Under the pieces are notes generated by a model. The model was not told where the DNA came from. It made no database searches and saw only the letters and a list, made by a program, of their open reading frames with translations. DNA of 36,255 nt from a virus (taxonomy: Duplodnaviria; Caudoviricetes), in IMG/VR virus record IMGVR_UViG_3300025018_000317, positions 1 to 36,255 of that record. One strand, 5' to 3'. Every line of letters starts with the position of its first letter. Positions within the stretch are counted from its first letter, which is position 1. This document shows, in pieces, positions 1 through 36,255 of this stretch. A program made the position numbers and the translations under genes.

Positions 1-3000
1 AGCCACCATGTGGTGCTATTCTAGCAGAGTTTGGATATCTTGTATGGTCTGACACAGTGGGACTACCTGACGTTTCCGAACTCGGATGAACATTGGTTCC
101 CATTTTAGAACCACCACTTCCTGATTTCAGGTTAGCAGAAGGTGGTGTTAATTGACCTGGACCAATAGATCTTGTTGGACTGCTAAGTACAGTGGCTAGA
201 CCTACGGCTCCCGCAAAACCAAGTCCAATTTTTCTTGCATGAGGGATAGATTTTTGTCCTGCGGCAGTAATCTTATTGATAAAAGAGTTTGTACTAGAAA
301 CTAATCTAGAAGCAAACCCTTCAGCTTTTCTTTCTGTGCCTTTGAAAAAACCAGACATAGGACTCATACTAACAACATCATTGCTTAATGTTGCTGCTGC
401 TTCGGTTCCGGTCATACGACCGCCTTTGCTATGAAATATTTCAGCTAATCTAGCCATACTAACACCATTAGCTTTGGTTCTCTCCATGGCTTTTCTTGAC
501 TCGATCATAAAATCTACAGCATTTGCAATGTCTATTCCCCTTACTTTCTTATAACGAACAGCACCAGAAGCTTCTTGAATGGCTACATTAACACCTTCTG
601 TAAGGGCGGATTTGGCTACAGGTTTTGCTTCTTCAAGCACACTGCTAACGGCTTTGATTATTCCAGCCCTATCATTACTCTTGAAAGACTTAGTAATATC
701 TTCAAATAAACCAATCATTCTGCGAGATTCGCCAGCTTTAATATGCTTACCAGATATAGGCGTTTGCTCCATCCATTCAAGTAGTCCGAGAGCATTCATT
801 GCTTGTTTTGAATTTTCTCTTCCCATTCTAGAAAGAATAGCTGAGCGATGGCCCTGTAGTGCTGTAGAAAGTTTACCTAGTCTGCTTTGGGTAATGCCTA
901 ATTTTAGAGCGTCGTCTGCTGCCATTTTATTTCGCATAACTGCACTTAGAGTCAGACTTCCAGAAGGTGCTTTAGCTTTTAAAATCTGACTTCTAAGAGA
1001 ATAAGACTCATATGCAGACTTATAGGCTGCGTCGTTTTGTAGAGTAGTTAGTTTCTTCTGCATGTCCGGAGATCCAAGCATTACAGAGACAATATCACCA
1101 TCAAAGTCGCCAGCTAAACCAACCATAGGAGAAGACCTCAAAAGAGTCTCTGAGATTCCCCTAGCTTTAGCTACTTCTTTTATTGAAGCTGGACTAGACA
1201 TAATACCTTTAAATTCATCCATTCCAATAGAACCAGGAGCAACAATAGCTCGACGCACTTGTTCGTTAAACATTGCGACAGCTTCTTCTCCTGGAATCAG
1301 TTTCATTGTGGTAGGCTGATTAGAATATGGGCCAATATAAGGATGTCTACCAAGAAGACCAGCGATGCCTTCTCCTGCCATAAACCTATCGCTCATGGCT
1401 TTAAGTTCATTGGTACTATAAATACCTAGATTCTCCATACTGGTAAACATTTTTTTCGCGTACTTTTTTGTAATACCAACTTCGCCAGGCAGAAGATCTA
1501 TTCCCTTTCTTTCAAGCCAATCTTCAACCTTTGGTGTTTTAGCAACAGATGTTAGGAATACGCTTCCAGGGACTCTGTTTCGAAGCAGGCCGCCCTTTCC
1601 TGTAATCGTTCCAATTCTAGATTTAGCAACGTCTACCTGCAGAGCTTCAACTTGCTTCATCATGGCATCTTTGGATATGGCGCCAGAAGAGTACATCTCA
1701 GACATTTCTATTGTCTTGTTGTATGAGTTTGCTAGATCACTAGTAATGATTGATCCAGTAGCAGTTTGATATTCTGCTAGAGATTTTACGATATTATTAC
1801 CAGGAACAAAAACTGAGCCCAAATCACCTAGCTGAACATTTCCTCCTGTGCGAAGCAGTTCTGGATTCTTAAGCACATCTCTAGCAGCATGAGCGCCCTT
1901 TATATCTTTTAAGGAAGAAAGGCTTTCTAGGGAACGAGTTAGTTCTTTCTGTTCAAGAAGTCTTTCAGGATACATTGCATTCATTCTATTTGATATGTCT
2001 TGTTGTAGTTCAGGACCTACTGCACCAAGATGAGGGGAATTAAGGAATTGGAAGGCGCGGGGTTCTATTGTTGCCATCTTCCCTGAGCCAGGACCTGCAA
2101 CATCTTCAAAAAAGATCTGTCCAGCGCCAACGACGTTTCCTTGTTTAACAAATTCCATTTCTCCTGGCTTTAAACTAGCTAACAAACTAGCTGAATCCTT
2201 TCCAAAAGCTTCTGGAACAGCACCAAAGGTAAGTCCCATTTGTCTTGGAGTAAGATTAGAGGTTCTGGCTAAATCGATTAATCTGGATATTTTAGCAGGA
2301 TGATCGCCTGCTGTAGCATCTTGAATGCTTTTTGCTACACCAAGAGGGTTGTTCAATAACTCCTCTACGGCCATTTGTTCAACTTTGCCAGAGTTCATAT
2401 TCTGACGAGTAAAGTGCCATAGTGCTGTAAACATCTGATTATAGTGTAACACCCTGTTCTTTTTAAGTTCTGCGGTTGTAAGAATCATCTGAACCGCTTC
2501 GTTTTTAATACCAGGCTTTGTTACTCTACTAACGGTTTCGTTTATAACTGACTGTTCACTAGTGGCCCACATACCCTTGCCTATGCCAAACCCCTTAAAG
2601 AAAGAAGGGTTGGTGACGTTTTCGTGGCCAACTACACGTAAGAAATCGCCTTTGCTCTTGTCGTCCTTAAATCCCTCAACAAGCTTCATTGTAAAATTGG
2701 GTGGAGCTTTTACCGGAAGTCCCTCTGGGCTAAGTCCTAGGACCGTTCCTTCTGGAACACGAACATTCATTCTCATTTGAGAGCCTTTATAAGAGTCTAA
2801 GCCGAAAACATTGCCACCTTCTTCTACTTTAGCGTAGTCTCCAAGAGAAAGAACTTTGTCGCTAGCAATAGAAAACTGGCGCCATTTATTAACACTACGG
2901 GCAGCATAGCCTCGTTCAGAAACAAGATACTGTCCTTCTGCAGAAAGTCCTAAGTCTTGAAGACCCATGGCGCTTTCTTCAGACACATACATTGCTAAAC

Positions 3001-4525
3001 CCATTGGAGCGTCAACCATTCGATTGGATTTCGCCCAAGAGAATAAATCATCTATAGTGCCAGATCCTTTTTTCATGAGAGTAGATGCAATCTTGGTTGG
3101 ACTAGAATTAGCTCTTATTGCTTGGCCAGGTCTACGTCCCCAAGATGCTTCATCCGAGAAGAGAGAGAAGGCGTCTTTTCTTGTATCTCTTAGAGACACA
3201 ACGCTTTTAGCAATCTGAGCAGGAGAAAATCCGGGATAGACAGGAAGAAAACCTTCTCCAGTTTCCTTTAGTTGTTTAAAGATGGTGGAGGCTGCTGTTC
3301 TGTCTAGGTGAAAACGTGAACTTGCTTTCTGAAACTCATTCCAAGAATACTTCTCCCCAAGTCCAAAGAATTCTGGAGTAACCTTAAGTCCGCCTTCTTC
3401 AAGAATGGAAGCTTGGTACAACTCGTTAAGTTTATTGTACTTGCTGTCGTACATGTGAAGTAGGCCAGAACGAGCTTTTATATATGCATCTCTACCTGGA
3501 TGCATTCCTTCAGGAGTAGACATAATCCATTCTGGATCTTCCATCATTTTGTTAGTAAACTGCATTACATGAGAATTATAAGCTCTTCTAGACCTTACCT
3601 TTTCTCTTAAAAGAGTTGGAATTAATTCATCGTTAGCTCTTTTAACCATCCACTCTTGACTAGTGTATGTTGAAAGAACTTTTCCTTCTTCGACTATCCC
3701 ATAGGTTCCTGCAATATATTTTGTTTGTCCTGTAGTCCCAGAGGTAATAAGGGAAGGATTTTTAGGATCTATACCAGGAATCTTAAGTGTAATGGCTTCG
3801 CTTTTATCTATACCTAGTTTTCCACCATAAAGTTTTACTCTAAGTTCCGTACCAGGCTTATCTGGTCTACCAAATTCAGTAATAGAAACAGTTCCCTGTC
3901 TTCCTGGTTCACTGATAGACTCCATTAAGTTCTGAAGTAATCCACTCATTTTAGGGGAAAAATCAGACATATATTTCTTTTCAATCTCGCGAGTGAATGA
4001 CATTGAAACAGCACTAAAAGAAGTTGAAAGACCTCTAGCGCTTCTTGATTCCATTATATTAAATAGTTCGCTAAAGCGACCTGCTGCCTTTGCTGAATAA
4101 ATAGAAGAATTTTTACCTATAACTCCAGTGAAACTTTCAATCACTTGAGCTTGATCAGTCGCAGTTAGAAGATGAGGAGATAGAGAGGCATAGAGATGGC
4201 CAGACGGATCCGAAGCTAAGACAGCTTGAGTTACAAGGTTCTTAAGGTCCTTTAGTGGGATACGCACGGTATGTCGTTTGCTTGCTATACCATCAAGCTG
4301 TGTGCGCTTAAAAACATCTGTACCCATATTTAGATTTACAGATTGACGAATAAGAGAAGACGAAAAAGAGGAGCGCGACGAAAGGTTGTCGCTAAAGGAG
4401 TTTACTAGATTTTCAGCATCACCACTTTTAATAAAACTATATCCACCGTATGCAACAGGAGCAGAGATAACAGCAGCTTTAAATAAGCTAGTTCCTGATT
4501 CGTCAGTTTTCTTTTCACTAGCCAT
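1..4525 (-). CDS. Single-chain two-barrel (DPBB) DNA-dependent RNA polymerase, beta+beta' fused, probable virion RNAP (partial, >1508 aa, runs off left edge)
   Basis: Not in ORF track. ATG at 4525 follows GGAGGA SD and overlaps the upstream TAG; manual translation found no stop to position 2. Motifs in order: EGQYLVSER (2912-2938, cf. beta EDSILVSER), KGFGIGKG (2573-2596, cf. KMAGRHGNKG), VQMILTTAELKKNR, ITSDLANSY (cf. beta' ATSDLNDLY), GKGGLLRNRVPGS, GEVGITKKYAKKMF (cf. QCGLPKKMALELF), LLGRHP (cf. LLNRAP), LAGDFDGD (DFDGD 1094-1108), EQTPISGKH (743-769, trigger-loop-like). Confidence 0.9.
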   Translation of the reverse strand, partial: MASEKKTDESGTSLFKAAVISAPVAYGGYSFIKSGDAENLVNSFSDNLSSRSSFSSSLIRQSVNLNMGTDVFKRTQLDGIASKRHTVRIPLKDLKNLVTQAVLASDPSGHLYASLSPHLLTATDQAQVIESFTGVIGKNSSIYSAKAAGRFSELFNIMESRSARGLSTSFSAVSMSFTREIEKKYMSDFSPKMSGLLQNLMESISEPGRQGTVSITEFGRPDKPGTELRVKLYGGKLGIDKSEAITLKIPGIDPKNPSLITSGTTGQTKYIAGTYGIVEEGKVLSTYTSQEWMVKRANDELIPTLLREKVRSRRAYNSHVMQFTNKMMEDPEWIMSTPEGMHPGRDAYIKARSGLLHMYDSKYNKLNELYQASILEEGGLKVTPEFFGLGEKYSWNEFQKASSRFHLDRTAASTIFKQLKETGEGFLPVYPGFSPAQIAKSVVSLRDTRKDAFSLFSDEASWGRRPGQAIRANSSPTKIASTLMKKGSGTIDDLFSWAKSNRMVDAPMGLAMYVSEESAMGLQDLGLSAEGQYLVSERGYAARSVNKWRQFSIASDKVLSLGDYAKVEEGGNVFGLDSYKGSQMRMNVRVPEGTVLGLSPEGLPVKAPPNFTMKLVEGFKDDKSKGDFLRVVGHENVTNPSFFKGFGIGKGMWATSEQSVINETVSRVTKPGIKNEAVQMILTTAELKKNRVLHYNQMFTALWHFTRQNMNSGKVEQMAVEELLNNPLGVAKSIQDATAGDHPAKISRLIDLARTSNLTPRQMGLTFGAVPEAFGKDSASLLASLKPGEMEFVKQGNVVGAGQIFFEDVAGPGSGKMATIEPRAFQFLNSPHLGAVGPELQQDISNRMNAMYPERLLEQKELTRSLESLSSLKDIKGAHAARDVLKNPELLRTGGNVQLGDLGSVFVPGNNIVKSLAEYQTATGSIITSDLANSYNKTIEMSEMYSSGAISKDAMMKQVEALQVDVAKSRIGTITGKGGLLRNRVPGSVFLTSVAKTPKVEDWLERKGIDLLPGEVGITKKYAKKMFTSMENLGIYSTNELKAMSDRFMAGEGIAGLLGRHPYIGPYSNQPTTMKLIPGEEAVAMFNEQVRRAIVAPGSIGMDEFKGIMSSPASIKEVAKARGISETLLRSSPMVGLAGDFDGDIVSVMLGSPDMQKKLTTLQNDAAYKSAYESYSLRSQILKAKAPSGSLTLSAVMRNKMAADDALKLGITQSRLGKLSTALQGHRSAILSRMGRENSKQAMNALGLLEWMEQTPISGKHIKAGESRRMIGLFEDITKSFKSNDRAGIIKAVSSVLEEAKPVAKSALTEGVNVAIQEASGAVRYKKVRGIDIANAVDFMIESRKAMERTKANGVSMARLAEIFHSKGGRMTGTEAAATLSNDVVSMSPMSGFFKGTERKAEGFASRLVSSTNSFINKITAAGQKSIPHARKIGLGFAGAVGLATVLSSPTRSIGPGQLTPPSANLKSGSGGSKMGTNVHPSSETSGSPTVSDHTRYPNSARIAPHGG

Positions 4526-7500
4526 TTCTCATTCCTCCGTGCAGGATTTTTCTAGCATCTTCGCGACGGTCTGCCTTAAATGAAATATCTAGATTATTTT
4601 TAACAGATGGACTGATAAAAATATTTGCATTTTTAACACCAGAGGCCGCCAATATCCTATCGATATTTGCTCTAATCTCAGATTCAGATTGCCCCTGTGC
4701 TTCTTGTAATTCTTCGGCAGCCGCTTCAATGGCCGGTCTTCTTGTTACAAGTCGCGCTTTATCTGGCCAGAGGTCGTAATCATACATGTTTTTAGCAGCA
4801 TCCTGTACTACTTTAAGCTTTATATCTTCTAAGTCTACAGCGGGGTGCCAGCCTACCCAGTTTGGACCTGGAAGACCCTTACCTTTTAAACCTTCGATAA
4901 GAAGTTTTGTTCTCCTATACCAGTCGGGATAAGATTCACCAGGATGCCTTGTAGACAAAAACTCAGACCAAAGTTCTTTTGTTTTTGGCATACCTTCTGT
5001 ATCTTTATCTTCATATAGTTGTCTTAGTGTTACGTCAACTTCAGCTGCTTCTTTCTCAGATAGAAGTCCTTTCTCTTGGGCTTTTCTTGCGTCGGAAGCG
5101 TCTTTGATTCTCCATCTGGCCATCATGAGAGCCTTCTCATTTTTTGGAATCATCTTTAAAATCTCTTTTCTTTCTGCCATATCGGCACCAACGAACTCTT
5201 CGAAGTAATCCCTTTCTCTTCTTGGTTGAGAACGATAGATTTTGGTAAAATCTTGAGTAAATGGATTTATTCCAAATAGAGTTTCTCTTCTCTGTTGCTC
5301 TGCAATGGCAACAGCTTCAGAGTCGTTAGCTTTTATTGCCTGTTCTTTTAGACGAGTGTTTTTAACATATTTCAATATATCGAAATACTCCTCTAGGCTT
5401 CTTCTTTCCTCGACTTCTTTTGGGGGAGTACTGGAGCCAAGAGAGCCACGAAGTACATTAAAGAATGGCTTAATGAAATCTCGAACAGGATGTTGCCAGA
5501 ATGCACTATCTGTTCCAAAAACTTGAAACTTTTTATAATCTTCTACTGCGGTTCTCTTGTGAATCAGCTTAGCTCCGGGAGCCATAGGGGTTAAAAACTC
5601 AAACGGAGTTTCCGCATTGTGAGCAATAGTCTCCCAGTAAGATCCAAGTATTTTTGCAAAGAGTCCTTTTTTTGCTCCTTTATTTTTAATCTCTTCGTTT
5701 TCTCTCGCTAAGATAGCTTCCATTGGCGTGGTGTCTCTGTCTCTATATAAATAAGGAGAGAAGTTTTTACGCTTCTTCTTTTCTTTGTTCATTGCGAGAA
5801 TGTCTTTGAGACGAGCTTGATCTTCCTTGCTTAAGCGACCACTAGTACTCATTCCCCTGACTTGATGTAGGGTTTCCTTGAATCGATCTGAATATGGTGC
5901 AACATCAGCCAAGATAGAAAGTCTTTCTATGGCAGGATAATCTTCTGGAGCTACATCTTTTAACCATGGATGTAGAGCTGCGTAGCCAACGCCAGGAAGC
6001 CTTTCTTCTCCCTTGGCGACCTTGGTATAGGGATCTCCATGCAAGAAGTCTGGGGACCTCTCAGAGGGTCCTGGTAACCAATCAGGCATTGTATTCCTAA
6101 GAGGATTATATTGCTCTATTTGTCTTCTTCTATGCGGATATAAACGACGTAGCATTTCTGTCGTCATAAGACCGCCGCCGATCTCCTTGTCCCAATATTC
6201 TCTTTCTGCTCCATACATTCTACGAGCAGATTCTAGTTGAGATTCTTCGTCAAAAAGATCGGATGTTCCAGTAATAGCTTCTTTGACAGAGGTAGCTGTA
6301 AAACCTGGAAGACCAACCATTTCTGTCATTCTGTAGACGCTTTCACCGCTTGTCCCTTTAACCCCATAAGGACTGATAGGAACGCCCGCTTCTAACTCTC
6401 CACCAAGTTCTTTGGGAAAGGGCTGGTATCCAAACTTAGGAGGCATACTAAGGACTGCGCCACCAACTTCTCCTTCCGGTATAGGACCTCCTTTACCGTA
6501 AAGAGTACCTCCTCCTTTATTTCCACTTTGCCATTCAGATGTATGCATATAAACAGCTGGTTTAAACAACTTGCCTACCGTTGCTGCCAAGACAGGACCA
6601 ACAAAAGGAACATCTTCAAACGCTGCTCCTGTTAATGGATATGGCCTGTCATAGTAGTGTTTTCTTTCTAGATCATAAGTAAAATTTTCGATAAACCATC
6701 TGCGCATTGGAGATGGGGCGTCTTCGCCGTAGATAGATTTTTCTTTAGCGTTAGCGATTAGAGATGGCAACCAGTGTTGTTCATATCTGTCTATTCTTCC
6801 ACCCTCATATGGTGACCTACCGAACTCCCACCATCTGCCTTTTCTAACAGGAACTAATTGTTGTCCAGAGTAGAGTTTTTCTAGTTCATTGGGTCGTTTC
6901 TCTGGAACAAGGGCACCAGGAAGGAAAGGGAGAATTAGGGCGGCGCCAATGGTTGCTCCAACAAGAGACGGTATCTTTGCAGGAGACATTTCCCCAAAGA
7001 CTCTCATTGCCTTGTTTAAAGCACCCTTTCCCTTTTGGATAGAAGCTATCTTTGCAGCAAATCTACCAGTTCTACTCTTCATTTTATTGGCAGTTTCTCT
7101 TTCTAACATCTCAATAGTGTTTTTCTCAAGAGGCGCTAAGATTTCTTCGGAAACAGCAGTTCCATAAAGAGCTTTTTTAAAGAAGGAAGATTCTGCGCTT
7201 ATGTGAGCAGAGGCTTGAGAAAGAGATAGGCCCGCCTGTGCCTGAAGCATTGTTTGTTTGCCAAGGCGTCTTCCGTATCCGTAGAAGAGTCCTCCAACTG
7301 CTCCAATGGTTGGAAAAGCAATCAAAGAACCTAGGTTTGTGCTACCTGGAGCGCTATCTTCCTGCCATTCTCTAAGGGCATGACCTCCTGTTATCTCAGC
7401 AATTGTTGAAACTCCCTTTTGAACCATAGTGGCAGCATGACCAATGCCAGCTGTGATACCTTCTGAAAAGATTGTTCCGTCTAATAGCGTAGAGTTGCGT

Positions 7501-7913
7501 GCAGCATGATCTAGCTCTTGGTAAGCCGTATACATAAGAGGAGCAGCAATACCAAGTTTGGCTGTTAATTTTCCAAAAGTTTTGAGACCGCTGGAGGGGT
7601 CTACGTCAAACCGGAGACTTCTTACAAGAGGAATCTTTGGAAGAATATCCTTAAGGATAGGCATTTCAAATGGTGCGCGAGCTAACTGATTAAATCTTTC
7701 TATAAGAGAAGTTCCGTATCCACTAACAAATCTATAAGCAGACTGAAGTCTATTTTTACCCCCAGCAAAAATAAACATTTCACTTTCTTTTCCAGCAGCT
7801 CCAAGGAAAGGAATCTTTTGTTTAAAACTTCCTTTGGGAATTGGTCCGCCAGCGAGAGATCGTCCGTAAGCTTCTGCAAATTTAGGATCTGCTCCTGTGA
7901 TATTTCTAATCAC
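4518..7913 (-). CDS. Large tape-measure-like / ejected virion protein, C-terminal portion (frame open upstream to 8042)
   Basis: 1131 aa in the tape-measure position after tube and chaperone genes; TM-like segments LIAFPTIGAVGGLFYGY and VGATIGAALILPFLPGALV; helical charged C-terminus; no Cys. Upstream in-frame sequence ITEILEKGFRYEAGQLRVGKVGGDVLLERAS looks coding. Confidence 0.6.
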   Translation of the reverse strand: MIRNITGADPKFAEAYGRSLAGGPIPKGSFKQKIPFLGAAGKESEMFIFAGGKNRLQSAYRFVSGYGTSLIERFNQLARAPFEMPILKDILPKIPLVRSLRFDVDPSSGLKTFGKLTAKLGIAAPLMYTAYQELDHAARNSTLLDGTIFSEGITAGIGHAATMVQKGVSTIAEITGGHALREWQEDSAPGSTNLGSLIAFPTIGAVGGLFYGYGRRLGKQTMLQAQAGLSLSQASAHISAESSFFKKALYGTAVSEEILAPLEKNTIEMLERETANKMKSRTGRFAAKIASIQKGKGALNKAMRVFGEMSPAKIPSLVGATIGAALILPFLPGALVPEKRPNELEKLYSGQQLVPVRKGRWWEFGRSPYEGGRIDRYEQHWLPSLIANAKEKSIYGEDAPSPMRRWFIENFTYDLERKHYYDRPYPLTGAAFEDVPFVGPVLAATVGKLFKPAVYMHTSEWQSGNKGGGTLYGKGGPIPEGEVGGAVLSMPPKFGYQPFPKELGGELEAGVPISPYGVKGTSGESVYRMTEMVGLPGFTATSVKEAITGTSDLFDEESQLESARRMYGAEREYWDKEIGGGLMTTEMLRRLYPHRRRQIEQYNPLRNTMPDWLPGPSERSPDFLHGDPYTKVAKGEERLPGVGYAALHPWLKDVAPEDYPAIERLSILADVAPYSDRFKETLHQVRGMSTSGRLSKEDQARLKDILAMNKEKKKRKNFSPYLYRDRDTTPMEAILARENEEIKNKGAKKGLFAKILGSYWETIAHNAETPFEFLTPMAPGAKLIHKRTAVEDYKKFQVFGTDSAFWQHPVRDFIKPFFNVLRGSLGSSTPPKEVEERRSLEEYFDILKYVKNTRLKEQAIKANDSEAVAIAEQQRRETLFGINPFTQDFTKIYRSQPRRERDYFEEFVGADMAERKEILKMIPKNEKALMMARWRIKDASDARKAQEKGLLSEKEAAEVDVTLRQLYEDKDTEGMPKTKELWSEFLSTRHPGESYPDWYRRTKLLIEGLKGKGLPGPNWVGWHPAVDLEDIKLKVVQDAAKNMYDYDLWPDKARLVTRRPAIEAAAEELQEAQGQSESEIRANIDRILAASGVKNANIFISPSVKNNLDISFKADRREDARKILHGGMRNG

Positions 7914-7947
7914 AGAAGCTCTTTCTAAAAGAACATCTCCACCTACT

Positions 7948-9183: not shown

Positions 9184-9189
9184 TAGAAC

Positions 9190-10419: not shown

Positions 10420-10431
10420 TGTTTATCTCTC

Positions 10432-11379: not shown

Positions 11380-11396
11380 AGTTATCACCTATAAGT

Positions 11397-11424
11397 AGCT
11401 TATGTTGAAGAAAAAACATGTCAA
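11397..11424 (-). promoter_or_regulatory. Possible sigma70/sigmaA-type promoter
   Basis: TTGACA (11419-11424), 16 nt spacer, TAAGCT (11397-11402), directly downstream of a terminator. Confidence 0.35.
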
Positions 11425-11432
11425 CAATAGGT

Positions 11433-11463
11433 AAAAAAATAGCCATCAAAAGATGGCTATTTT
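11433..11463 (-). terminator. Rho-independent terminator after tail tube gene
   Basis: AAAATAGCCATC-TTTT-GATGGCTATTTT perfect hairpin running into a U7 tract. Confidence 0.85.
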
Positions 11464-11486
11464 AAAGAAGAAGATAAGAAGAGAAA

Positions 11487-12170: not shown

Positions 12171-12182
12171 TTAAATCACTCC

Positions 12183-26015: not shown

Positions 26016-26017
26016 TA

Positions 26018-27129: not shown

Positions 27130-30100
27130 CTAGAACTTAGTTCGTTTTGGCATTTTTGATGTACGACCTAGTTTTATCTTTCCTTGCATATTTCCAGTAG
27201 GTTTTGGAGCATCATAACCAAATCCAGGCCAAGACCATACTCCGTTAGAAGAAGGTTTTCTATCGGTATTGGCCGCAGGTATTCGACTATCTACAGAGAG
27301 TTGTTCGAAAATAGATTTATCTTTTGAAAACTCAGATGTTCTATTACCTGGCCTATGTTCTCCTTCTTCCTTCTTGTTTAAATGAGAGTCTCCAAATGTA
27401 CCTGCCATAGAAATATTTGCAACAAATTTAGGTTTAGAAAACATAGACTTTTCTAAAGTGTGAGCAACAAGAGCCAAATTTACAGCGTCTAGAAAGTGGT
27501 CTCCAACCTTCTCGTCAAGAACACCATAAACTGGCTGACCATACATACTGACCCTGTCAACGACATAGTTTTGTAACTGAGCGGTAAAGTCTAGATCTCC
27601 TCTTGGATATCTAATCTGTATTTGCTCAAACCTTCTAACTGAGTTTTCTACCAAGAAAGACTTGCTATGTTTTTTGACCTTTTGTTTGGTAAACGGATCT
27701 GTGATTTCAATACTAGTGCTAAACGAGTATCCTTTAACAATGTCTTTTAGTCTAGAGTCAGGACTAGAAGGTCCATGCAAAAGGGTTTGATCAAAACCAA
27801 ACTTACGTAGAACTTCAATTTGGGTTGTTCCAAATCCTTGGTCCACATATATAAACTCAGGAAGCCATTTTCTATTAAGCTGAGAGATTCTTTGACAGGC
27901 AGCAAGCTGCGTCCACTCTCCTCTCCTTACAACGTCCTTCTCAACCAAATAGAACAATCCATCATCGGGATTAAATCCCATTACAGCAATAGTTGTTCCT
28001 ATTTTGTGATCGTTCCAATCTACTCCAATTGTATACGCCCACTCCTTGGTTGGCTTCAGGTCTCCATAGTTAAATTCTGCCTGACACTGTTCAATGTATT
28101 TATTCTGATAAACACCCTCTTCCTGTTCACCAAACTCCGCTTTGATTTCGTGCTTGTATCCAGCCTCCGTCAATTCAGATTTAAAATAATCGTCAAGATC
28201 TTGAGTCCAGTTAGGGTTAACGAAAGAAGGATAAAAGAACTCTCTGTATTGTTTGTTCATACAAGTTTCATAGAATTTTGCACGAGCACCAGTAGGGGTT
28301 GAAGACATCCACACAGTTGCTTCTGGAAAGTTGGCAATTGTGGCGATAGCGGCATTGATGTCACCAGGGCTATTGTGGGTTAAAGTCCCACTGGCAACAA
28401 AATTGTTTGTTTTAGGTACTCGTAAATCATAAACTTCTTTAAAACGATTTTTCATAGGATGAATAATATTAATCCTAGAAGCATAACAACAAATTCGTTG
28501 TTGAATTTGATTTATAAAATCCTCTTCACCAATTTGTTCTAATCCTATCAGTAGTTTTTCGATACTATTAAGAGTTGGATTAACTTTTCTATGTAAACTA
28601 TCAAAAATAATTTGCTTACCTGTAAATTTCTTAGAAATAGATTTCTTAATAGATTGAAAAATATCTTTAAAATATCCAGCATGATATCTCAAATTAGAGT
28701 ATTTATTTGGATTAGATACCCTATTAGTTATAGCAATTTCTAATTTTGCAGACTTAGCAGAACTACCAAAACCAATATAATTATTAAAAAGTTTAATAAA
28801 ACGGTCTTCGGCAATAGATAATTGATATACGGGATTTTTACCAAACCCAGAAGGTTTATGTTTAGATAATGATGATAAGATCCCCAGTTTTTGCAGTAAC
28901 AGTCTTATTATACGAATTACAGTAAAGTCTTCCTGAGAAACTACGACAGAATTTCTTGTAAGATTAACCGAACCTTCTGCATCATAAAATCCCGATAAAA
29001 ATGCTCCTAACCCTTCGATGTCCAATGTGCTAATTTCTTTTGTTATTTTTTTGCTAGTCAGAAATCCTGGAAACCATTTTTCAATATAATCGACAAAAGT
29101 TTTTGAACTTAGACGTAATCTATATCCCTTACCGGATGAGTATTTGGAAATCTTACCTTTATTAGTAAAGCCCAATTGAACCGCCAAATCTCTATAGAAA
29201 ACAAGGTTGGAAATATCTTTATCAGTAAATTCTATAGTTGTTCTATCTAAATATCCATCACCTAAGAAATAACCCATTATTTGACATAATCTAGGATCAA
29301 CAGATCTATGCCCTAAAATACCTTGGCGTGGATGGATAAAAAAATCACCAATTTGCAAATCTTCAGCAGCTTTTTCTGTAACTCCATTATCAGTAAGTAC
29401 AATATGCTTATGGTCTTTTGTAGTCTCTAAATATCCATATGAAGATTTTATAGCATACAGATTGGTCTCTTCTCTTCTTGACTTCCAGATGGCAGGAGCG
29501 ATATTAGAATGTAAAGATTCGTCTAGACAATGTATATTATAGTCTTTAGGAATATCATCAGAAATAAAAGAAATTGTTCCATCAGAACCTTCTATTAAGG
29601 TATCTGGAGAAACACATAGATAGTCGGCTTCGTCAAACACAAGCATGTTTGCTGGCTGACCACGAGCAGCGCCCGCTTCCTGTCCCGATCTTGTACCAGC
29701 TGTAAAGCCGATAATATTCGAACCGTTAAAAAGTTCCATTTTGTAACTTGGAGACTTTACATATCTAGAGCGAGACATGAAAAGAATATCATTACTTTTA
29801 ATAAGGTCATCGATGCGACCAAAGATCATTTCAATCTGAGACTGATATGGAGTAATAACAACAACCTTAAATTGTTTATGTGTCCATATTGCATAAAGGA
29901 TAGAGATACATAGAACTTCTGTTTTTCCAGCCTGGCGCCCGACACGAAAGACCTTTCTTCTTGAGCTGCAGTTGTGAACAATCAAACCGTTAGCAACAAA
30001 GTTGTGTCTTGTATCAACCTCTATATCCCAAACGTTATCTTTTCCAAGATATTCTATATTTGTAATTTTTGTTCGGGAGAGAGTATTGCATTTTCCATGG

Positions 30101-31494
30101 CGTCTAAAGCTAGCTCTCTTTGATATTTCTTTTTTTGCAATCTCGCTTTGAGTTTCTTTTCCAAAAATAAGACCAACTTCAAGAAAAAATCTTTCTACAT
30201 CAGAAGACCTTCTGATGCTTAAACGATATCCTTTTCCTTCCTTTTTATCTTTGTAAATATGAGAAGCGTATATTCCAATTTTTTTAAGTAAATATCTAAA
30301 CTTATTAAGAAAATCAGTATTTCCACTTGCTAAACTAAGGTTTGAAATACGAAAACTATCATTGGAAGGACTGTTATATACGCATCCGTCTCCTGCCCAC
30401 GCCCTGTTTATAAAAACCCCAAGCGCTTTCTTATTGAACTTGAAAGCGTAGTTAAGTATAGATATTTCTCGATTCTCTGGTCCAGTGCAGCCGATCTCTG
30501 CAAGAAAAGACAGTAGCTCTCTACTCTCCTTGAAATAGCTTACGCTCCAACTCTCTTTGTGAGAGCATGATTTGTTTTTATATTTAGGGTGGTATTTGAT
30601 CTCTGCATTTATATTAAATAGTTCAAGAACTAATTTCTGAAATTCTTCTACGTATTTTCTTCTGGTATTTCTGAATTGTACAACGTGTTTTTTCCCAACA
30701 ATGCCAGAGTTTTTAACACAACCATCGGTTACTAAATATCCCATAAGCTTAGCTAGGGAAACATTGTCTATTTCACCAAAAACACCAAACTCGTTTAGTG
30801 TATAAATCTTGTCTCCAATAGAAAGACCTTCTTTTAATGACTTGTAAACTCTTTTAAAGGATTTCTTACCAACAAGGTTGTTTTTCTTTCCTTCGTGAAA
30901 CCAGGATAGGATAGGGTGGTTGTCGGTAACGATCAAGGAGTCCCCATTTTCTAGGGAAACCTTAAAGACATCCCTTTCTCCATTGTTCCACTTATTGAGA
31001 ACTTTGTAAGATCTTTGTGTTTTCTTTCTGCCTTCGTTATAGGTAACTACTATGTCTCCTGGCTCTATTTCTTTTATTTTTTTTAGGGTACCATTGCCAA
31101 GAAAAACTTCGGTATCTCCATGTAGACAGCGAAGCATTTCTGCTTGATATGGGCGATGATATATAGACTTACCAGCCTTAGCTCTTTCTTCGTCATATTT
31201 AGCGGAGTTAGGAGGAATAGTGCCGTCTGCTGTTTTACGTTTCCAGACTTCTCCATCTGGATCTAGACAGTGCCAGTCTAAAAAAGTGGCGGCCCATGTA
31301 ACTGGATCCACTGAAGCGATTGACATGTTTGGGTCTTCGTCTAGCGTAGCAAGAATTTCGTCGGGAACATACTTAATAGGGATTCCGTTACATTTAACTG
31401 CAAACTTATCGCCCTTTCTAAGTCTATGTTTTTCAATATATCTTGAAACACAATTAGTGCAGGCATTTTGACATTCTTTAAGATTGAGTGACAT
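27130..31494 (-). CDS. terL: Terminase large subunit with two inteins (653 aa after splicing)
   Basis: RPYQ, Walker A VGRQAGKT, Walker B LVFDEADY, motif III SSTP, nuclease IGVDWN / YVDQG / DHFLDA. Confidence 0.95.
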   Translation of the reverse strand: MSLNLKECQNACTNCVSRYIEKHRLRKGDKFAVKCNGIPIKYVPDEILATLDEDPNMSIASVDPVTWAATFLDWHCLDPDGEVWKRKTADGTIPPNSAKYDEERAKAGKSIYHRPYQAEMLRCLHGDTEVFLGNGTLKKIKEIEPGDIVVTYNEGRKKTQRSYKVLNKWNNGERDVFKVSLENGDSLIVTDNHPILSWFHEGKKNNLVGKKSFKRVYKSLKEGLSIGDKIYTLNEFGVFGEIDNVSLAKLMGYLVTDGCVKNSGIVGKKHVVQFRNTRRKYVEEFQKLVLELFNINAEIKYHPKYKNKSCSHKESWSVSYFKESRELLSFLAEIGCTGPENREISILNYAFKFNKKALGVFINRAWAGDGCVYNSPSNDSFRISNLSLASGNTDFLNKFRYLLKKIGIYASHIYKDKKEGKGYRLSIRRSSDVERFFLEVGLIFGKETQSEIAKKEISKRASFRRHGKCNTLSRTKITNIEYLGKDNVWDIEVDTRHNFVANGLIVHNCSSRRKVFRVGRQAGKTEVLCISILYAIWTHKQFKVVVITPYQSQIEMIFGRIDDLIKSNDILFMSRSRYVKSPSYKMELFNGSNIIGFTAGTRSGQEAGAARGQPANMLVFDEADYLCVSPDTLIEGSDGTISFISDDIPKDYNIHCLDESLHSNIAPAIWKSRREETNLYAIKSSYGYLETTKDHKHIVLTDNGVTEKAAEDLQIGDFFIHPRQGILGHRSVDPRLCQIMGYFLGDGYLDRTTIEFTDKDISNLVFYRDLAVQLGFTNKGKISKYSSGKGYRLRLSSKTFVDYIEKWFPGFLTSKKITKEISTLDIEGLGAFLSGFYDAEGSVNLTRNSVVVSQEDFTVIRIIRLLLQKLGILSSLSKHKPSGFGKNPVYQLSIAEDRFIKLFNNYIGFGSSAKSAKLEIAITNRVSNPNKYSNLRYHAGYFKDIFQSIKKSISKKFTGKQIIFDSLHRKVNPTLNSIEKLLIGLEQIGEEDFINQIQQRICCYASRINIIHPMKNRFKEVYDLRVPKTNNFVASGTLTHNSPGDINAAIATIANFPEATVWMSSTPTGARAKFYETCMNKQYREFFYPSFVNPNWTQDLDDYFKSELTEAGYKHEIKAEFGEQEEGVYQNKYIEQCQAEFNYGDLKPTKEWAYTIGVDWNDHKIGTTIAVMGFNPDDGLFYLVEKDVVRRGEWTQLAACQRISQLNRKWLPEFIYVDQGFGTTQIEVLRKFGFDQTLLHGPSSPDSRLKDIVKGYSFSTSIEITDPFTKQKVKKHSKSFLVENSVRRFEQIQIRYPRGDLDFTAQLQNYVVDRVSMYGQPVYGVLDEKVGDHFLDAVNLALVAHTLEKSMFSKPKFVANISMAGTFGDSHLNKKEEGEHRPGNRTSEFSKDKSIFEQLSVDSRIPAANTDRKPSSNGVWSWPGFGYDAPKPTGNMQGKIKLGRTSKMPKRTKF
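28372..29616 (-). mobile_element. Intein 2 with LAGLIDADG homing endonuclease (415 aa)
   Basis: Starts CVSPDT, block B TTKDHK, IMGYFLGDG and FLSGFYDAEG, ends GTLTHN followed by Ser+1. Confidence 0.93.
29971..31128 (-). mobile_element. Intein 1 with LAGLIDADG homing endonuclease (386 aa)
   Basis: Starts CLHGDT, block B VTDNHP, LMGYLVTDG and FINRAWAGDG, ends NGLIVHN followed by Cys+1. Confidence 0.93.
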
Positions 31495-31521: not shown

Positions 31522-31977
31522 TTATCGATGGTTCCACAGTGTGCCTGCTTTACCCCTGAGTGCATTGAAGCCATTGACGGCTTTATTGGCATCCATTTTT
31601 ACCCCCCGTCCCACCGCCGAAGCTCCTGATCCAAGCGTGCCGAGGACGCCCCTGTTTGATCTAATAGCAGATCTCATAGCTCCTACTCCCATAGCGCCAT
31701 ATCTTCCCGCTCCAGCGCCAAGCAAACCTGCTCCTATTGTGCCGAAGAAAGAAGGGTCATCGCGAAGAGCTATGTTTGCAGCCATACTGCCATAGAGACC
31801 AGCGCGACCATATGAACCAGCCATGCCTTTTCTCTGAGCAGCAAAACCAAGAGCGCCAGCGGCCAAGGTTCCCCAAAAAGAAGTGTCTCTGTCCATGGCT
31901 ATATTTGTACCCATGGCTCCTAATGCACCATAACCTCCACGCATACCTAAGCTATGAGCTGTTGATAAAAAACCCAT
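31522..31977 (-). CDS. Small Gly/Ala-rich membrane-active-like protein with internal repeat
   Basis: 151 aa, GxxxG-rich, two similar segments 43 aa apart; GAGGTG SD; no Cys. Confidence 0.7.
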   Translation of the reverse strand: MGFLSTAHSLGMRGGYGALGAMGTNIAMDRDTSFWGTLAAGALGFAAQRKGMAGSYGRAGLYGSMAANIALRDDPSFFGTIGAGLLGAGAGRYGAMGVGAMRSAIRSNRGVLGTLGSGASAVGRGVKMDANKAVNGFNALRGKAGTLWNHR

Positions 31978-31988
31978 CTAATTCACCT

Positions 31989-32714
31989 CTATCCAAAGTA
32001 AGGTCTATAGGCAAGTGCAGCCTCATTTCCAATAGCAGATCTTCCATTAATTCTAGAGTTCTGCATTGCTGTCACACTTCTTTGCCTCATTGTAGCAGCA
32101 GTTCCAAAAGGATCAACAACAGGTCTAGTCATTTCTACTCCTGCGTGTTTTTTCATATGGTCCCGTACCCAGGGGCGAGCCATAAATTCAAAAGGATTGG
32201 CGCCGCCTGATGCGAAATTAGCTGCCGAATAAGCTGCACCCGCTATTGCTAAAACACCTAACCCTGTTCCAGAGAGCACTCCACCAGATAATTGAGTAAT
32301 ACCTTTTACTGCTGCACCAAACGCATAGTTATGCACCATAAACTCTGCAGCACCACCAATCGCGCCACTTATTCCACCTTTTTGATATCCTTCATATGCG
32401 CTATATCCAATAAACGCTTTTCCAAGATAACCTGCAGACATGTCTCTCATCCACTTCATGCCGTTAGCGTGGATACTAGATTGACCATAAGTCTTAAACG
32501 CATCTAGTGTTCTACTAGCTCTTGGATAGCTTTCTCTTATGTGAGAAAGCATTTCTCTACCAGAGGCTTTAATGTTAGCCATATGTGGATTTATAAAGCT
32601 TCGTATTCTTCCAGGAGGTGGAGGTGGCGCAGGAGGATATGACGCCCCAAAAGCCTTCTGCCTTGGGTACATTCCTCTTTTTAAATTCCATTCATATTCT
32701 TCAAATCTACTCAT
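31989..32714 (-). CDS. Gly/Ala-rich putative ejection protein
   Basis: 241 aa; GGISGAIGGAA and GLGVLAIAGAAY hydrophobic segments; PPAPPPPP tract; no Cys. Confidence 0.65.
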   Translation of the reverse strand: MSRFEEYEWNLKRGMYPRQKAFGASYPPAPPPPPGRIRSFINPHMANIKASGREMLSHIRESYPRASRTLDAFKTYGQSSIHANGMKWMRDMSAGYLGKAFIGYSAYEGYQKGGISGAIGGAAEFMVHNYAFGAAVKGITQLSGGVLSGTGLGVLAIAGAAYSAANFASGGANPFEFMARPWVRDHMKKHAGVEMTRPVVDPFGTAATMRQRSVTAMQNSRINGRSAIGNEAALAYRPYFG

Positions 32715-32717
32715 TGG

Positions 32718-33455
32718 TTAGTGTCTCCCCTGATGCATACCCTGAACTAATCCAAATGTGCTAGCATTAAACATTTCACGAGCTTGTTGTCTATTGTTTG
32801 TAGAATTGCCAATGTCGAATCCAGCAGAGGAAACTCCTGACGCCATTAGAGCGTTTGAAGGGTCAAAATCCCTAGCAGAATTGCCAGACGTAGCGATTCC
32901 GTACATTGCTGCTGCAGTGGCAACTCCACCGAGAGCAAGGGTTGGGTTTCTGAGCGCCGCTTCCCCAACGCTTCTTGCTGCGCCACCAAAAATAGACAGA
33001 GTATCTAAGCCAAACTTACCTAAACCTTTTCCGACATTTAACCCAGCTTTTCCAGCGCTAGCAGCCTTGCGAGTTAGATTCCCTGCCATGCCTCTGCTTT
33101 TTACCATATAATTTGTAATATCTTTCGCTTGACTTTTACTTATAATGCCCTCAGTAAGATGCGGAGCTAATATTGTATTGGATTCATTTATAATAGTTTG
33201 TTTGCTTGGTATTCCTTTAAGCCCCCACAATCTTCTAAATGTTAGGGCTCCTAAGCCTGCACCAATACCCGCACCAGCTATAGCTCTTGTAAGCCCAGTG
33301 CCCGGAGCAGCATCGTCTGGAGTTGAAAAGCCACCATAGGCAGCACCAATACCTGCACCTAAAACAGCGCGACCTCCACCTGTTCCAAATAGGCTACCAA
33401 CACCACTTTTCATACCGCCAGCTATATCGAACAAAGGTTTTTGGAATACGCTCAT
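32718..33455 (-). CDS. Glycine-zipper putative ejection protein
   Basis: 245 aa; AVLGAGIGAAYGG, AIAGAGIGAGLGAL, LALGGVATAAAMYGI; GGAG SD; no Cys. Confidence 0.65.
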   Translation of the reverse strand: MSVFQKPLFDIAGGMKSGVGSLFGTGGGRAVLGAGIGAAYGGFSTPDDAAPGTGLTRAIAGAGIGAGLGALTFRRLWGLKGIPSKQTIINESNTILAPHLTEGIISKSQAKDITNYMVKSRGMAGNLTRKAASAGKAGLNVGKGLGKFGLDTLSIFGGAARSVGEAALRNPTLALGGVATAAAMYGIATSGNSARDFDPSNALMASGVSSAGFDIGNSTNNRQQAREMFNASTFGLVQGMHQGRH

Positions 33456-33467
33456 GGTTTTGCACTC

Positions 33468-36255
33468 CTATTTCAGACTACGGCCACTAGTATAACTTGT
33501 ATGATTTTTTCCGCCACCAATTGCAGCTTGTGACAACTGGGCTTGAGCTTGCTGCAATCTTTGTGCAGCTAGAACCTGTGTTCCAGGCTTTAGTGCTTGA
33601 GGAGGTATGGGCGGCGGACCTGGTCGAGGAACCGGCGCAAAATCAGTAATTAGTGTTTGAAGTTTTTTATTTGCATTTGGACTCCAAGCCTCTAGACCAG
33701 CAGAGAAAGGTTGGATCTCTCCTTTTATAGCACCACGAACTCCAGCAAATACTTTTTCAACTCCAGAATTTCCAAGACTTTTAACAAAGCCTCCTTCTCC
33801 AATTAAAACTTGTGCAGCGTTATGTTGGCCAACTGTAGTTCTGGCAAGAGTAGCAAATCTGTTTGAAACCTGTCTTTCAAGAACTTCATGGAATAAAACA
33901 GTATTTAGAAAATCATCAGTTCCGACAGAGGATAGATCTTTTATCCCAGCTTTAGTTCCAAATTCCTGGAAAGACTTTTGTAAACGCGCAGGATCCATTA
34001 AGATATATTTTTCTCCACTGTCGTGAACAACCATTCCAGCTCCACCACCTAGTCCAGGTTGTTGTCTTAATGCGTCTTCAAAAAACGCTTTCTTTGCGGG
34101 AGTGTTCGCAACAATGACATTCTTTTCTCCTAGCGCCTCTATAAACTGTTCAAGATTTTTTCCCTTAGCGAGTCTTGCGGCTTCTATAGGGTTAGTTAGT
34201 TTACTTGCAAGAGGGGCTGGATTTTTAGCCATGAACCTGCTAATTCTTCTGGAAATTCCACCAAACCATCCTTTCCAAGGAGAACCAAAGTCTCCATAAA
34301 GCCTTCTCTCTAGAGAGGCTATTCCTCCATGACTAAAACCATTAAACGGGTTTAGTCCCATATTTGAAGATGGTCTTGCTATAGATAAACCGGCTGCCAT
34401 GTCCATATCATAAAGAGATGTTTTATCTTCTACAGAAGAGTTCATGGCTGCTCTTTTCCGAATAGCATCGGGAGATGCAGCACCAGTGAGAGGACCGCTT
34501 AGATGTTGAGATCTTGAAACGATAGGAGCACTTGAGTTTGCAAAGGATGACAGTTCTTTTAGGGTGTTTTGAAGCTTTTCAAACCCTATCTCCATCCTGA
34601 GTTCGTGGTCTATATTCATGCCCCAACTTTCCAAGTTCTTAGTCTTCGAAGTTGCAACTCCCCAATCTATCCAAGAAACACGATTACTGGCAGCATCGTA
34701 CATTATGTTGTCTGCCTTAATGTCGAAGTTTGCCAATCCTCTTGATTTTGTTTCCTCTATTGCTTGTCTCACTCTTGGCAGGATGTCTTTTGGAACATTA
34801 GAGACCCCAAGATCGTGTAGTGCTTTTCCTGGCATTAGTTCCATAAAGAGCTGATTACTTTCAGCTAGGTATGGGGATGGGGCAAAGGACGTGTCTGCAA
34901 GCATACTCATAGCTGAAGCTTCGTTTTTGAGGTTTGTGTTGTGCTTAATAAAATCAAGAGGCAACCTGCCCTCTCTATTTGTTTGAGCCCATCTAGCTAG
35001 ATGTTCCTCTCCTTCATGAATACTTTTTCTAATGTAAGAGAACTCGCGTCCCATATAGCTTGTTTTCATCAGGTGAGTAACGCCAAATTGTCCAGAACCA
35101 AGTTCTTTTACAACAGCACCGCCGCGAATTGCAGCGGCAAACGCCTTGTCTTTTAGAACAGATCCATAGCTTTGGCCTAGATCTTGTGCAATACCTCTTA
35201 CGACATCATAACCGCTACCAAAGGGTGTATTCTTCTTACGTTCTTTTTCTGCCATACCTCCATGACGTAATCCTTCTATGGTGTTATATGCGTCATCTCT
35301 ACCAGAAAAGGAATAAGAGAGAGCAGAGAATGGAAGGGATAGAAGAGCGCCAGCGCCAGCGCCCATTCCAATATCCTTTATATTGCCAAGGAAGAAATCC
35401 CTCATCGGAACGCTTTGTATGTTTCCGTGTTTTATAACCAGGTCGAGCATAGCAGGAGAGCCGGTTTGAGACTCAAAAGCCATTCCGAGCGCCTTTCCTA
35501 ATCTTCCTGGTACCTTTCCTTCGATTCTTTGTCTCATATCTCTAAGTGCTGCGCCCATTGAGCCACCAGCAACGTAAGCTTTTACATCGACATTAAGACC
35601 CTTGCTCTTTAAAATCTCGGCTTGAACTTCAAGAATATCTTCTACTCCAATTTCAGGAATATTTTTTGGATTGAATTTTTTCATTAACCTTGGATCAAGG
35701 AATTTTCTGTTCAGAAAAGATCCCCGCATAAACGATGATGCAAGCATAGATGCTGATGCTGAAGTTTTAATACCTTCAATGGATCCGTTCCAGACCGTCT
35801 GGAAGAAGCTCTGAGGCTGTTCATATTTGAGCGCTTCAGTACCAGCCCAAATGCCTACGGCAGCAGCTGCGCCACCTAGGGCGCCTTTCCAGCCAAATCT
35901 ATCGTAGCCTGTGAGACCAGCAGCCCCAATAAGAAATGCTGTATTTATACCAGACAAAACCCCGCCGATAGTTATGTCATTATCTTTCTGTCCTTGATAT
36001 CCGGATCCAAACTTATACTTCTTTCTTAGTGTCCCAGCCATACCTCCGTGCAATAGACCTTCTATAGTGTTATATGCATCATCAAACCCAGAGAATCTGT
36101 TCCCTAGGGAAAAACGATTGTAACTTCTGTTTACTTCAAGAAAAAGTTTATTAAATTCTGGGGTTTGAAACAGCTCTGATAAAATTGGAATATGTCTATA
36201 TTGATCAAGAGCTTCTTTTAATGGATATTTTTCACTTCTGTAAGCAAGAGCCTCT
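33468..36255 (-). CDS. Multidomain polyprotein: membrane module + Ser/Thr/Tyr-type protein kinase + HExxE module (partial, >928 aa, open past right edge)
   Basis: Frame has no stop from 36254, 67 codons upstream of the track's TTG start. Kinase motifs LGSGQFG, YIRK, KNE, FMELMPG, DIKADN, IDWG; FHEVLE; three copies of a linker motif. Confidence 0.85.
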   Translation of the reverse strand, partial: EALAYRSEKYPLKEALDQYRHIPILSELFQTPEFNKLFLEVNRSYNRFSLGNRFSGFDDAYNTIEGLLHGGMAGTLRKKYKFGSGYQGQKDNDITIGGVLSGINTAFLIGAAGLTGYDRFGWKGALGGAAAAVGIWAGTEALKYEQPQSFFQTVWNGSIEGIKTSASASMLASSFMRGSFLNRKFLDPRLMKKFNPKNIPEIGVEDILEVQAEILKSKGLNVDVKAYVAGGSMGAALRDMRQRIEGKVPGRLGKALGMAFESQTGSPAMLDLVIKHGNIQSVPMRDFFLGNIKDIGMGAGAGALLSLPFSALSYSFSGRDDAYNTIEGLRHGGMAEKERKKNTPFGSGYDVVRGIAQDLGQSYGSVLKDKAFAAAIRGGAVVKELGSGQFGVTHLMKTSYMGREFSYIRKSIHEGEEHLARWAQTNREGRLPLDFIKHNTNLKNEASAMSMLADTSFAPSPYLAESNQLFMELMPGKALHDLGVSNVPKDILPRVRQAIEETKSRGLANFDIKADNIMYDAASNRVSWIDWGVATSKTKNLESWGMNIDHELRMEIGFEKLQNTLKELSSFANSSAPIVSRSQHLSGPLTGAASPDAIRKRAAMNSSVEDKTSLYDMDMAAGLSIARPSSNMGLNPFNGFSHGGIASLERRLYGDFGSPWKGWFGGISRRISRFMAKNPAPLASKLTNPIEAARLAKGKNLEQFIEALGEKNVIVANTPAKKAFFEDALRQQPGLGGGAGMVVHDSGEKYILMDPARLQKSFQEFGTKAGIKDLSSVGTDDFLNTVLFHEVLERQVSNRFATLARTTVGQHNAAQVLIGEGGFVKSLGNSGVEKVFAGVRGAIKGEIQPFSAGLEAWSPNANKKLQTLITDFAPVPRPGPPPIPPQALKPGTQVLAAQRLQQAQAQLSQAAIGGGKNHTSYTSGRSLK
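34275..34352 (-). repeat. Polyprotein linker repeat copy 3 (diverged)
   Basis: NPFNGFSHGGIASLERRLYGDFGSPW keeps the N..xG..HGG.A...R....FGS-x-aromatic pattern. Confidence 0.75.
35208..35309 (-). repeat. Polyprotein linker repeat copy 2
   Basis: FSGRDDAYNTIEGLRHGGMAEKERKKNTPFGSGY; also similar to copy 1 at DNA level (gcatataacaYatagaagg-type core ...ggaggtatggc). Confidence 0.9.
35997..36095 (-). repeat. Polyprotein linker repeat copy 1
   Basis: FSGFDDAYNTIEGLLHGGMAGTLRKKYKFGSGY. Confidence 0.9.

Follow-up and report, generated by a model that had tools for sequence, protein, structure and literature searches.

What do genes for enzymes do at the two ends of a phage head-and-tail operon? The question is raised by IMGVR_UViG_3300025018_000317, a virus record 36,255 bases long that is taken here in full (hereafter the window). 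It is about 19% complete, its 25 minus-strand genes form one morphogenesis operon, and it derives from a myovirus in the 0305phi8-36/ME3 lineage that has not been cultured. An initial annotation of this sequence had proposed that an RNA polymerase (RNAP), a kinase polyprotein and glycine-zipper proteins bracket the operon as an integrated kit for injection. The analysis presented here indicates that a two-barrel RNAP and a kinase polyprotein, encoded at opposite ends of the operon, are likely virion cargo, injected ahead of or together with the DNA. Packaging and injection of the polyprotein are suggested by two features of the sequences, the loss of cysteine and the fusion of cargo modules to a protein resembling the virion protein gp145 of 0305phi8-36 (the gp145-like protein).

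Matches to both the tail tube and the 1131-amino-acid (aa) gp145-like protein of the window were found in only 8 of 50,697 cultured phage records: 0305phi8-36 (two records), ME3 (two), WH1, Edson, KLEB27-3 and MTATph1. Relatives were sampled as 40 longer records from the best 80 tail-tube loci plus three more, giving 43 records that include three duplicate pairs; a survey for linkers within gp145-like genes covered 117 tube loci. Among the relatives, G004 is complete (188,653 bases), and G006 and G007, identical to each other, are the nearest to the window by sheath (66%). A single-sequence search of the locus returned nothing, and a literature search, with most subscription papers outside its reach, returned no description of a tail-slot polymerase or linker polyprotein for the lineage.

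The tail-end polymerase and its carrier segment

The gene at the tail end of the operon occupies the slot of 0305phi8-36 gp146, with the following features:

2..4525, minus strand: predicted single-chain two-barrel RNAP in the gp146 slot; at least 1508 aa in the window, 3' end open
1094..1108, minus strand: catalytic DFDGD motif (aa 1140-1144; D1140, D1142 and D1144), Asp invariant in 122 of 122 aligned rows
2576..2596, minus strand: beta-type barrel lysines K644 and K650, Lys in 117 and 111 of 122 rows, respectively
2..328, minus strand: beginning of the carrier segment at the C-terminus (aa about 1400-1560), common to all proteins of the slot

The full-length protein has 1560 aa (P0001), its 3' end lying beyond the window. 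As no sequence match was obtained in Pfam, PHROGs, NCBIfam, PDB sequences or cultured phages, its identity rests on motifs and predicted fold, by which it is a single-chain two-barrel RNAP. In addition to the aspartates, P1062 is invariant among the 122 aligned rows, and R1060 and R982 are kept in 120 and 109 of them, respectively; the family comprises 177 representatives at 50% identity. An AlphaFold (AF2) model of aa 215-1410, made with 50 rows, reached a pLDDT of 89.3 and a pTM of 0.90, and all of its matches listed by Foldseek against the PDB were RNAP subunits or complexes. With VIA, model residues 1-603 aligned to beta subunits and 656-1182 to beta'/Rpb1, so that the DxDxD triad and the two basic beta-type barrel residues are accompanied by both double-psi barrels in prediction. 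The whole-length model gave a Z of 11.6 with QDE-1 (535 residues aligned, root-mean-square deviation 7.7) and likewise 11.6 with RDR2, and the polymerase model gave 10.1-11.1 with P74-26 gp62 and 7.4-7.7 with P23-45 gp96. The RNAP that the initial annotation had placed at one end of the operon is thereby upheld by a predicted two-barrel fold and an invariant DxDxD. A second DxDxD polymerase was not found in the complete relative G004.

Among the top predicted viral structures matching the polymerase were two halves of an ME3 protein with lengths summing to 1603 aa; judged by that length, they would be ME3_36, the 1603-aa protein of the gp146 slot. ME3_36, WH1 gp095 and KLEB27-3 gp034 gave weak polymerase signals and are annotated as hypothetical or structural. 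Despite its variant motif, DHDQD, ME3_36 (L002:33172-37983) matches the polymerase fold, as does an uncharacterised ME3 protein of 798 aa (A0A172Q0S6); cultured ME3 possibly carries two unannotated polymerases. In BFVD, the best predicted-structure match, A0A8S5SD80, is a siphovirus 'minor tail protein' (TM 0.42, E 1e-9), which suggests further unannotated tail-associated polymerases.

In G006/G007 the polymerase is lost, and a slot protein of only 193 aa remains, aligning to polymerase aa 1400-1557, with the gp145-like and hub genes intact around it. Searched against 22 slot proteins, a profile of this carrier segment matched 0305phi8-36 gp146 (E 1.4e-10), WH1 gp095, KLEB27-3 gp034 and the slot protein of G031, which has a DEDDh exonuclease in the place of the polymerase; among 354 open reading frames (ORFs) of five relatives, it matched nothing but the slot protein. 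Gp146 of 0305phi8-36 is annotated 'identified as virion protein by mass spectrometry', and neither a DxDxD nor a polymerase profile match was found in it. The gp146 slot reads as a carrier plus cargo.

The linker polyprotein and the exchange of modules

At the opposite end of the operon, upstream of the gene for the terminase large subunit (TerL), the following features are found:

33468..36254, minus strand: linker-strung polyprotein, putative cargo; 5' end open, 928 aa in the window
35991..36104, minus strand: linker copy 1, about 40 aa, FSGxDDxYNTIEGLxHxGxAxxxRKxxTDFGSG type; profile score 65; DNA repeat D1
35205..35312, minus strand: linker copy 2; profile score 78; DNA repeat D1, 73% to copy 1
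34641..35111, minus strand: atypical (Bud32/RIO/ABC1-like) protein kinase module, by Pkinase match and motif conservation
34269..34355, minus strand: linker copy 3, partial; profile score 34
33471..34268, minus strand: HExxE...H...E module and conserved basic C-terminal tail; metal-binding or peptidase-like, unconfirmed

In a second assembly the polyprotein has 1013-1100 aa, and its layout is HExxH module, linker, Gly-rich module, linker, kinase, linker, HExxE module and basic tail. It sits behind a cysteine-bearing gene homologous to 0305phi8-36 gp112, ME3_9, WH1 gp121 and KLEB gp005, which is taken, by position only, as the small terminase (TerS). The Pkinase match (E 4.8e-5, 23.3 bits) is below the cut-off of 31.7, and the Gly loop, Lys, Glu, catalytic Asp, Asn and DxG are kept in 39-40 of 40 segments, with N-F-D spacing and no insert between the catalytic His and Asp. 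The initial annotation had named both a kinase polyprotein and a peptidase-like module; the former agrees with this conservation of all catalytic residues, and the latter was not confirmed, the motif in the window being HExxE rather than HExxH and no solved structure matching. The N-terminal module, which lies beyond the window, is the only one with an HExxH...E motif, and a profile of the HExxE module (7 rows, mixing three sub-families) had no PDB sequence match.

The linker, present three times in the window polyprotein, was counted in 165 copies in 63 homologues. Cutting these homologues at the linkers yielded 213 segments, 19 multi-member clusters and 58 distinct architectures among the 63 proteins, a set recruited partly via the linker itself and a count inflated by the many singleton architectures that are fragments. 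Thermonuclease (SNase) and DEDDh exonuclease modules in relatives score above the Pfam cut-offs, and motif reading weakly supports PD-(D/E)XK-like, ART-like and several HExxH/HExxE modules (cas4, E 0.018). Two or more disparate domains are joined in one polypeptide of a phage with portal and terminase, as in polyvalent proteins; LPD, PBECR and ArdC domains were not found among the best five families listed per protein (38 proteins, E<=0.01), and an LPD23 look-alike in the Atlas (0.85) is a lead only. Recombination at the linker is not shown, because the DNA of linkers from one gene (63%, 26 pairs) is hardly closer than that of linkers from different genes (60%, 227 pairs). Near-tandem linkers 30-35 residues apart, resembling empty cargo positions, were seen at L131:545-883, L037:1531-1872 and L141:6616-6930. 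In cultured ME3, the cysteine-free ME3_11 (L002:5895-7484) lies in the polyprotein position and has a DEDDh-like start (weak profile match, E 0.0025); it is likely the cultured counterpart of the polyprotein.

The two loci were found together in relatives. The polymerase-protein profile matched 33 of the 43 records (two via the carrier only and three via the C-terminal part only), and the linker was present in 29 of these 33, the other four not covering the cassette. Of the 33 regions upstream of TerL, 24 held a linker polyprotein, one a nuclease polyprotein without a linker match and six none, and two were cut off. A gene-neighbourhood comparison of this kind had been suggested with the initial annotation, and the co-occurrence of both loci answers it favourably; the integrated kit proposed there holds as far as this co-occurrence and not as a fixed set, for the polymerase is lost in G006/G007 and 6 of 31 informative cassettes lack the polyprotein. 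In 4 of the 117 tube loci surveyed, the gp145-like protein carries linkers and their modules as an N-terminal fusion, in one case with an SNase of 55.8 bits. The two of these tail-cargo records with a full cassette, G036 and the complete G040, have no polyprotein between TerS and TerL. Independently of these records, an insert in 0305phi8-36 gp145 (aa 1052-1346) has a match in one module of the polyproteins (E 1.3e-18), and the slot protein of MTATph1 has a match in another. These fusions and matches show that cargo modules are exchanged between the terminase-end and tail-end loci. No homology could be demonstrated between the C-termini of the three families, polymerase, gp145-like and polyprotein (hhalign probability <=3.6).

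Cysteine content, companion proteins and structural genes

Alongside the polymerase and the polyprotein, the flanks of the operon encode two further groups of proteins:

4518..8349, minus strand: cysteine-free gp145-like protein (0305phi8-36 gp145/ME3_35 family), in two frames at 7948-8349 and 4518-7913 (1131 aa)
31522..33455, minus strand: three small, basic, Gly/Ala-rich, cysteine-free genes of 151, 241 and 245 aa (27-39% Gly+Ala)

The seven flanking ORFs contain no cysteine in 4,337 aa, compared with 57 in 7,596 aa (0.75%) for the other ORFs of the structural operon; the binomial P of this contrast is about 6e-15, or 8e-12 with TerL left out, for a set of ORFs chosen post hoc, and four short genes within the operon are cysteine-free too. 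The absence of cysteine, as stated in the initial annotation, extends to whole families: 4 cysteines in 181,358 aa across the 122 polymerase rows, 11 in 63,319 aa (0.017%) across 59 polyproteins and none in 10,754 aa across 51 Gly-rich proteins, in comparison with 1.5% for the G004 proteome. Such family-wide suppression is that of ejection-protein sets (N4/DEV, T7 and crAss), and cysteine loss is likewise described for N4-like ejection proteins (PMC11445570). Longer, cysteine-bearing versions of the gp145-like protein (L054, L051, L057, L083, L102 and L119) appear to contain inteins, as shown for L119; splicing would leave the mature protein cysteine-free.

The 1131-aa protein of the window matches 0305phi8-36 gp145, annotated as a virion protein by mass spectrometry. 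Its model (pLDDT 83.8, pTM 0.81) is compact and mostly helical; no Foldseek match at E<=0.001 was obtained with this whole-protein model, and the best VIA match (Z 6.6) involves short helical pieces, with all Atlas leads under 0.9. Neither sequence nor fold matched ejection proteins of N4/DEV or crAss. The gene is broken near 8030-8050, about 13-17 codons short relative to intact homologues; a second assembly agrees fully as far as 7995, contigs from a public run that may be the source stop at 8001-8002, those of other runs do not reach the site, and the genes of L111 and L149 are likewise split. The break may be an assembly artefact or a real lesion.

The 241-aa Gly-rich protein is homologous to 0305phi8-36 gp115, WH1 gp117 and KLEB27-3 gp009. 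Gp113, gp114 and gp116, which lie in the TerS-TerL position of 0305phi8-36, are virion proteins by mass spectrometry, cysteine-free and Gly/Ala-rich. An alignment of the 241-aa family found no match in the four tail-cargo records, though their cassettes hold Gly-rich, cysteine-free ORFs. The glycine zippers of the initial annotation were recovered in two of the three proteins, with five GxxxGxxxG ladders in the 245-aa and three in the 241-aa protein; none was present in the 151-aa protein, and the hydrophobic segments claimed for them amount to one marginal 19-residue stretch (1.52) among the three. Formation of a channel by these proteins, for which composition alone speaks, is the weakest and least certain step of the proposal.

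The remainder of the operon encodes the packaging, head and tail proteins:

8356..9624, minus strand: two paralogous genes in tail-chaperone position, 275 and 144 aa, the position of 0305phi8-36 orf143/144
9634..14060, minus strand: tail sheath (PHROG E 2.9e-73) and three tail-tube paralogues, tube homologous to 0305phi8-36 gp140
17912..19171, minus strand: major capsid protein (PF25209, 72.4 bits)
22318..24540, minus strand: portal (PHROG 9232, E 9e-38) with C-terminal MuF-like domain (22336-22611)
27130..31494, minus strand: TerL with two inteins (Pfam and PHROGs)

The mutual similarity of the tail-chaperone-position pair is seen in relatives. As for the MuF-like tail that had been noticed on the portal, aa 644-735 match TIGR01641 (SPP1 gp7/MuF; 22.6 bits, E 1.1e-4) below the cut-off of 39.65, the region also matches PHROG 4728 (E 2.4e-5), and its CxxC...HP/HH motif is kept in 5 of 5 relatives examined. 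The match stops at aa 735 of 740, with no enzymatic extension after it, and the tail was rejected as a payload carrier, as the domain ends five residues from the C-terminus. After the MuF-like domain, the portals of G001, G003, G002 and G005 have a further stretch containing a zinc-ribbon-like motif of four cysteines, which is missing from the window portal. The 491-aa gene preceding the portal (24540-26015) encodes three strongly hydrophobic segments and 8 cysteines and is conserved in relatives; by hydropathy it is a better candidate for a membrane protein than the Gly-rich genes. Many Acidobacteriota assemblies (L148-L181) carry lone copies of tail-tube-like genes, often several per genome and without adjoining tail genes, possibly domesticated tube proteins or a clue to the host.

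Competing readings and known systems

Under the injection reading, each locus would consist of a carrier and exchangeable cargo. The polymerase would hang on the C-terminal carrier of about 160 aa, a segment that in other phages bears an exonuclease or stands by itself, and the linker modules would ride on the TerS-TerL protein or the gp145-like protein. The two loci would draw on one pool of cargo, with the proteins packed in late assembly and later threaded, partly unfolded, through the contracted tail tube, as modelled for crAss001 (PMC10172136); such threading would explain the cysteine ban. The polymerase would then refold and transcribe the first phage genes, and given that G004 has no second DxDxD polymerase, later genes would rely on the host enzyme. 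By analogy with the T7 kinase, the kinase may modify host proteins, and the cargo as a whole (the kinase, and in relatives the nucleases, ART-like and metal-binding modules) may target proteins or nucleic acids of the host, probably to counter defence. Packing or envelope passage would most likely be the role of the gp145-like and small Gly-rich proteins, and this is the least certain part. A bolder extension is possible, though doubtful: that this lineage of ~190-kb myoviruses practises programmable injection, with the ~40-residue linker as a loading or processing tag that strings any module on interchangeable virion carriers, the ~160-residue carrier loading a new RNAP family or other cargo, and a tail that may be without a conventional tape measure.

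Several points weigh against injection. Direct evidence of packaging or ejection is absent for the window phage and for all linker polyproteins, the linker has no match in any cultured relative, and the count of architectures is inflated as described above. Co-occurrence of the loci among kin is expected from descent alone. The relocation of cargo to the tail end counts as one event, because the four records form one clade (SH-aLRT 100, in a quick tree), and so does the loss of the polymerase in G006/G007, because those records are identical; they could, moreover, represent a defective phage. Among the 0305phi8-36 proteins, gp115 is the only one significantly homologous to the small Gly-rich genes, and it is not annotated from mass spectrometry; the 245- and 151-aa families are not significantly related to the mass-spectrometry-positive gp114 and gp113 (hhalign probability 0.25-12.7). 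A search of G004 intergenic DNA for a phage-specific promoter motif, limited to exact 11-mers, found no repeated word.

The polymerase might instead be a true tape-measure fusion as in P23-45, its unfolded chain setting tail length, with the terminase-end genes an unrelated module. In G004 and other relatives the order is chaperones, gp145-like gene, RNAP and hub, which is the tape-measure position, and the same slot in 0305phi8-36 holds gp146, which was assigned as tape measure mainly by tail length (PMC2147016). Lengths in the polymerase family are tight (10th-90th percentile 1434-1555 aa), and since the gp145-like neighbour is predicted to be compact and not tape-like, no other tape candidate is evident. 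However, 1196 of the 1560 aa form one globular enzyme model (aa 215-1410) that leaves no long fused tape-measure part, the slot protein of the nearest relative is down to 193 aa although its gp145-like and hub neighbours are intact, and the linker cargo joins the two loci. With a globular enzyme filling most of the chain and a 193-aa version in existence, the polymerase itself is probably not the tape measure, and the fusion is considered unlikely.

Comparably unlikely is that only the polymerase is virion cargo, the polyprotein being a late intracellular effector (of host DNA/RNA breakdown or competitor exclusion) that is never packaged. The absence of virion data for linker polyproteins and the six informative cassettes that lack one would fit such a role, and nucleases and kinases are useful late too, but cytoplasmic enzymes need not lose cysteine, as the proteome of G004 illustrates beside the polyproteins, and the same modules are fused to an orthologue of a virion protein. 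Still less probable is that all of these are virion proteins with the Gly-rich and gp145-like proteins as scaffolds that stay behind and the cargo working in or at the particle, for example in processing or protecting DNA. The weak predicted transmembrane character of the Gly-rich proteins, the capacity of small basic proteins to bind packaged DNA and the failure of the gp145-like fold to match any known ejection protein would accord with this; against it, an RNAP and a protein kinase need nucleoside triphosphates and substrates found only in the cell, and cysteine loss extends to the Gly-rich proteins. If injection holds true, an unannotated family of single-chain polymerases and carrier-cargo loci in myoviruses would extend the injected-cargo strategy, and the tape-measure annotation of 0305phi8-36-like phages would be revised. 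From defined carrier segments it would become clear how tailed phages choose the proteins they package, and the shuffled modules would be a source of candidate anti-defence enzymes.

Short-tailed phages, one siphovirus and the phiKZ-type giants are already known to carry virion RNA polymerases and injected enzyme cargo. The closest parallel to the polymerase is P23-45 gp96, described in PMC10770324 as likewise a single-chain two-barrel RNAP with DFDGD in the tape-measure position; in contrast, the window has a contractile tail and a polymerase of 1560 aa without a long tape part, compared with 5,002 aa for gp96, its fold scores higher with QDE-1/RDR2, its C-terminal carrier is detachable, and G004 has no second DxDxD polymerase. 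The supplements of that paper contained no match for the 0305phi8-36/ME3 lineage. In N4/DEV (gp71-73; PMC11445570) and crAss001 (PMC10172136), a cysteine-free virion RNAP and cysteine-free companions are proposed to cross the envelope with partial unfolding. Those phages are short-tailed with one contiguous operon for RNAP and channel proteins, whereas in the window myovirus two loci about 27 kb apart enclose the whole head-tail operon, and the N4-type RNAP is of the T7 class (PMC7824862), unlike the two-barrel enzyme found here.

For the polyprotein, the nearest precedent is provided by polyvalent proteins, which likewise unite disparate enzyme domains in one polypeptide encoded beside terminase and portal and are predicted to be injected (PMC5512222); kinase and nucleases are shared, and ART-like and zincin-like motifs may be. 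The linker polyproteins differ in the repeated ~40-aa linker at every joint and the fixed TerS-TerL position, in a kinase without the His-Asp insert of the polyvalent kinase family, and in SNase as a main module, a term absent from the main text of that paper. With the 0305phi8-36/ME3 lineage (GenBank EF583821, KU935715; PMC2147016), the window shares gene order, tube, sheath and homology of gp145 and of the gp146 carrier, together with cysteine-free Gly-rich genes upstream of TerL; the isolates lack linker matches. Each ingredient has precedent, and what the present analysis adds is the relocation of cargo and a detachable carrier.

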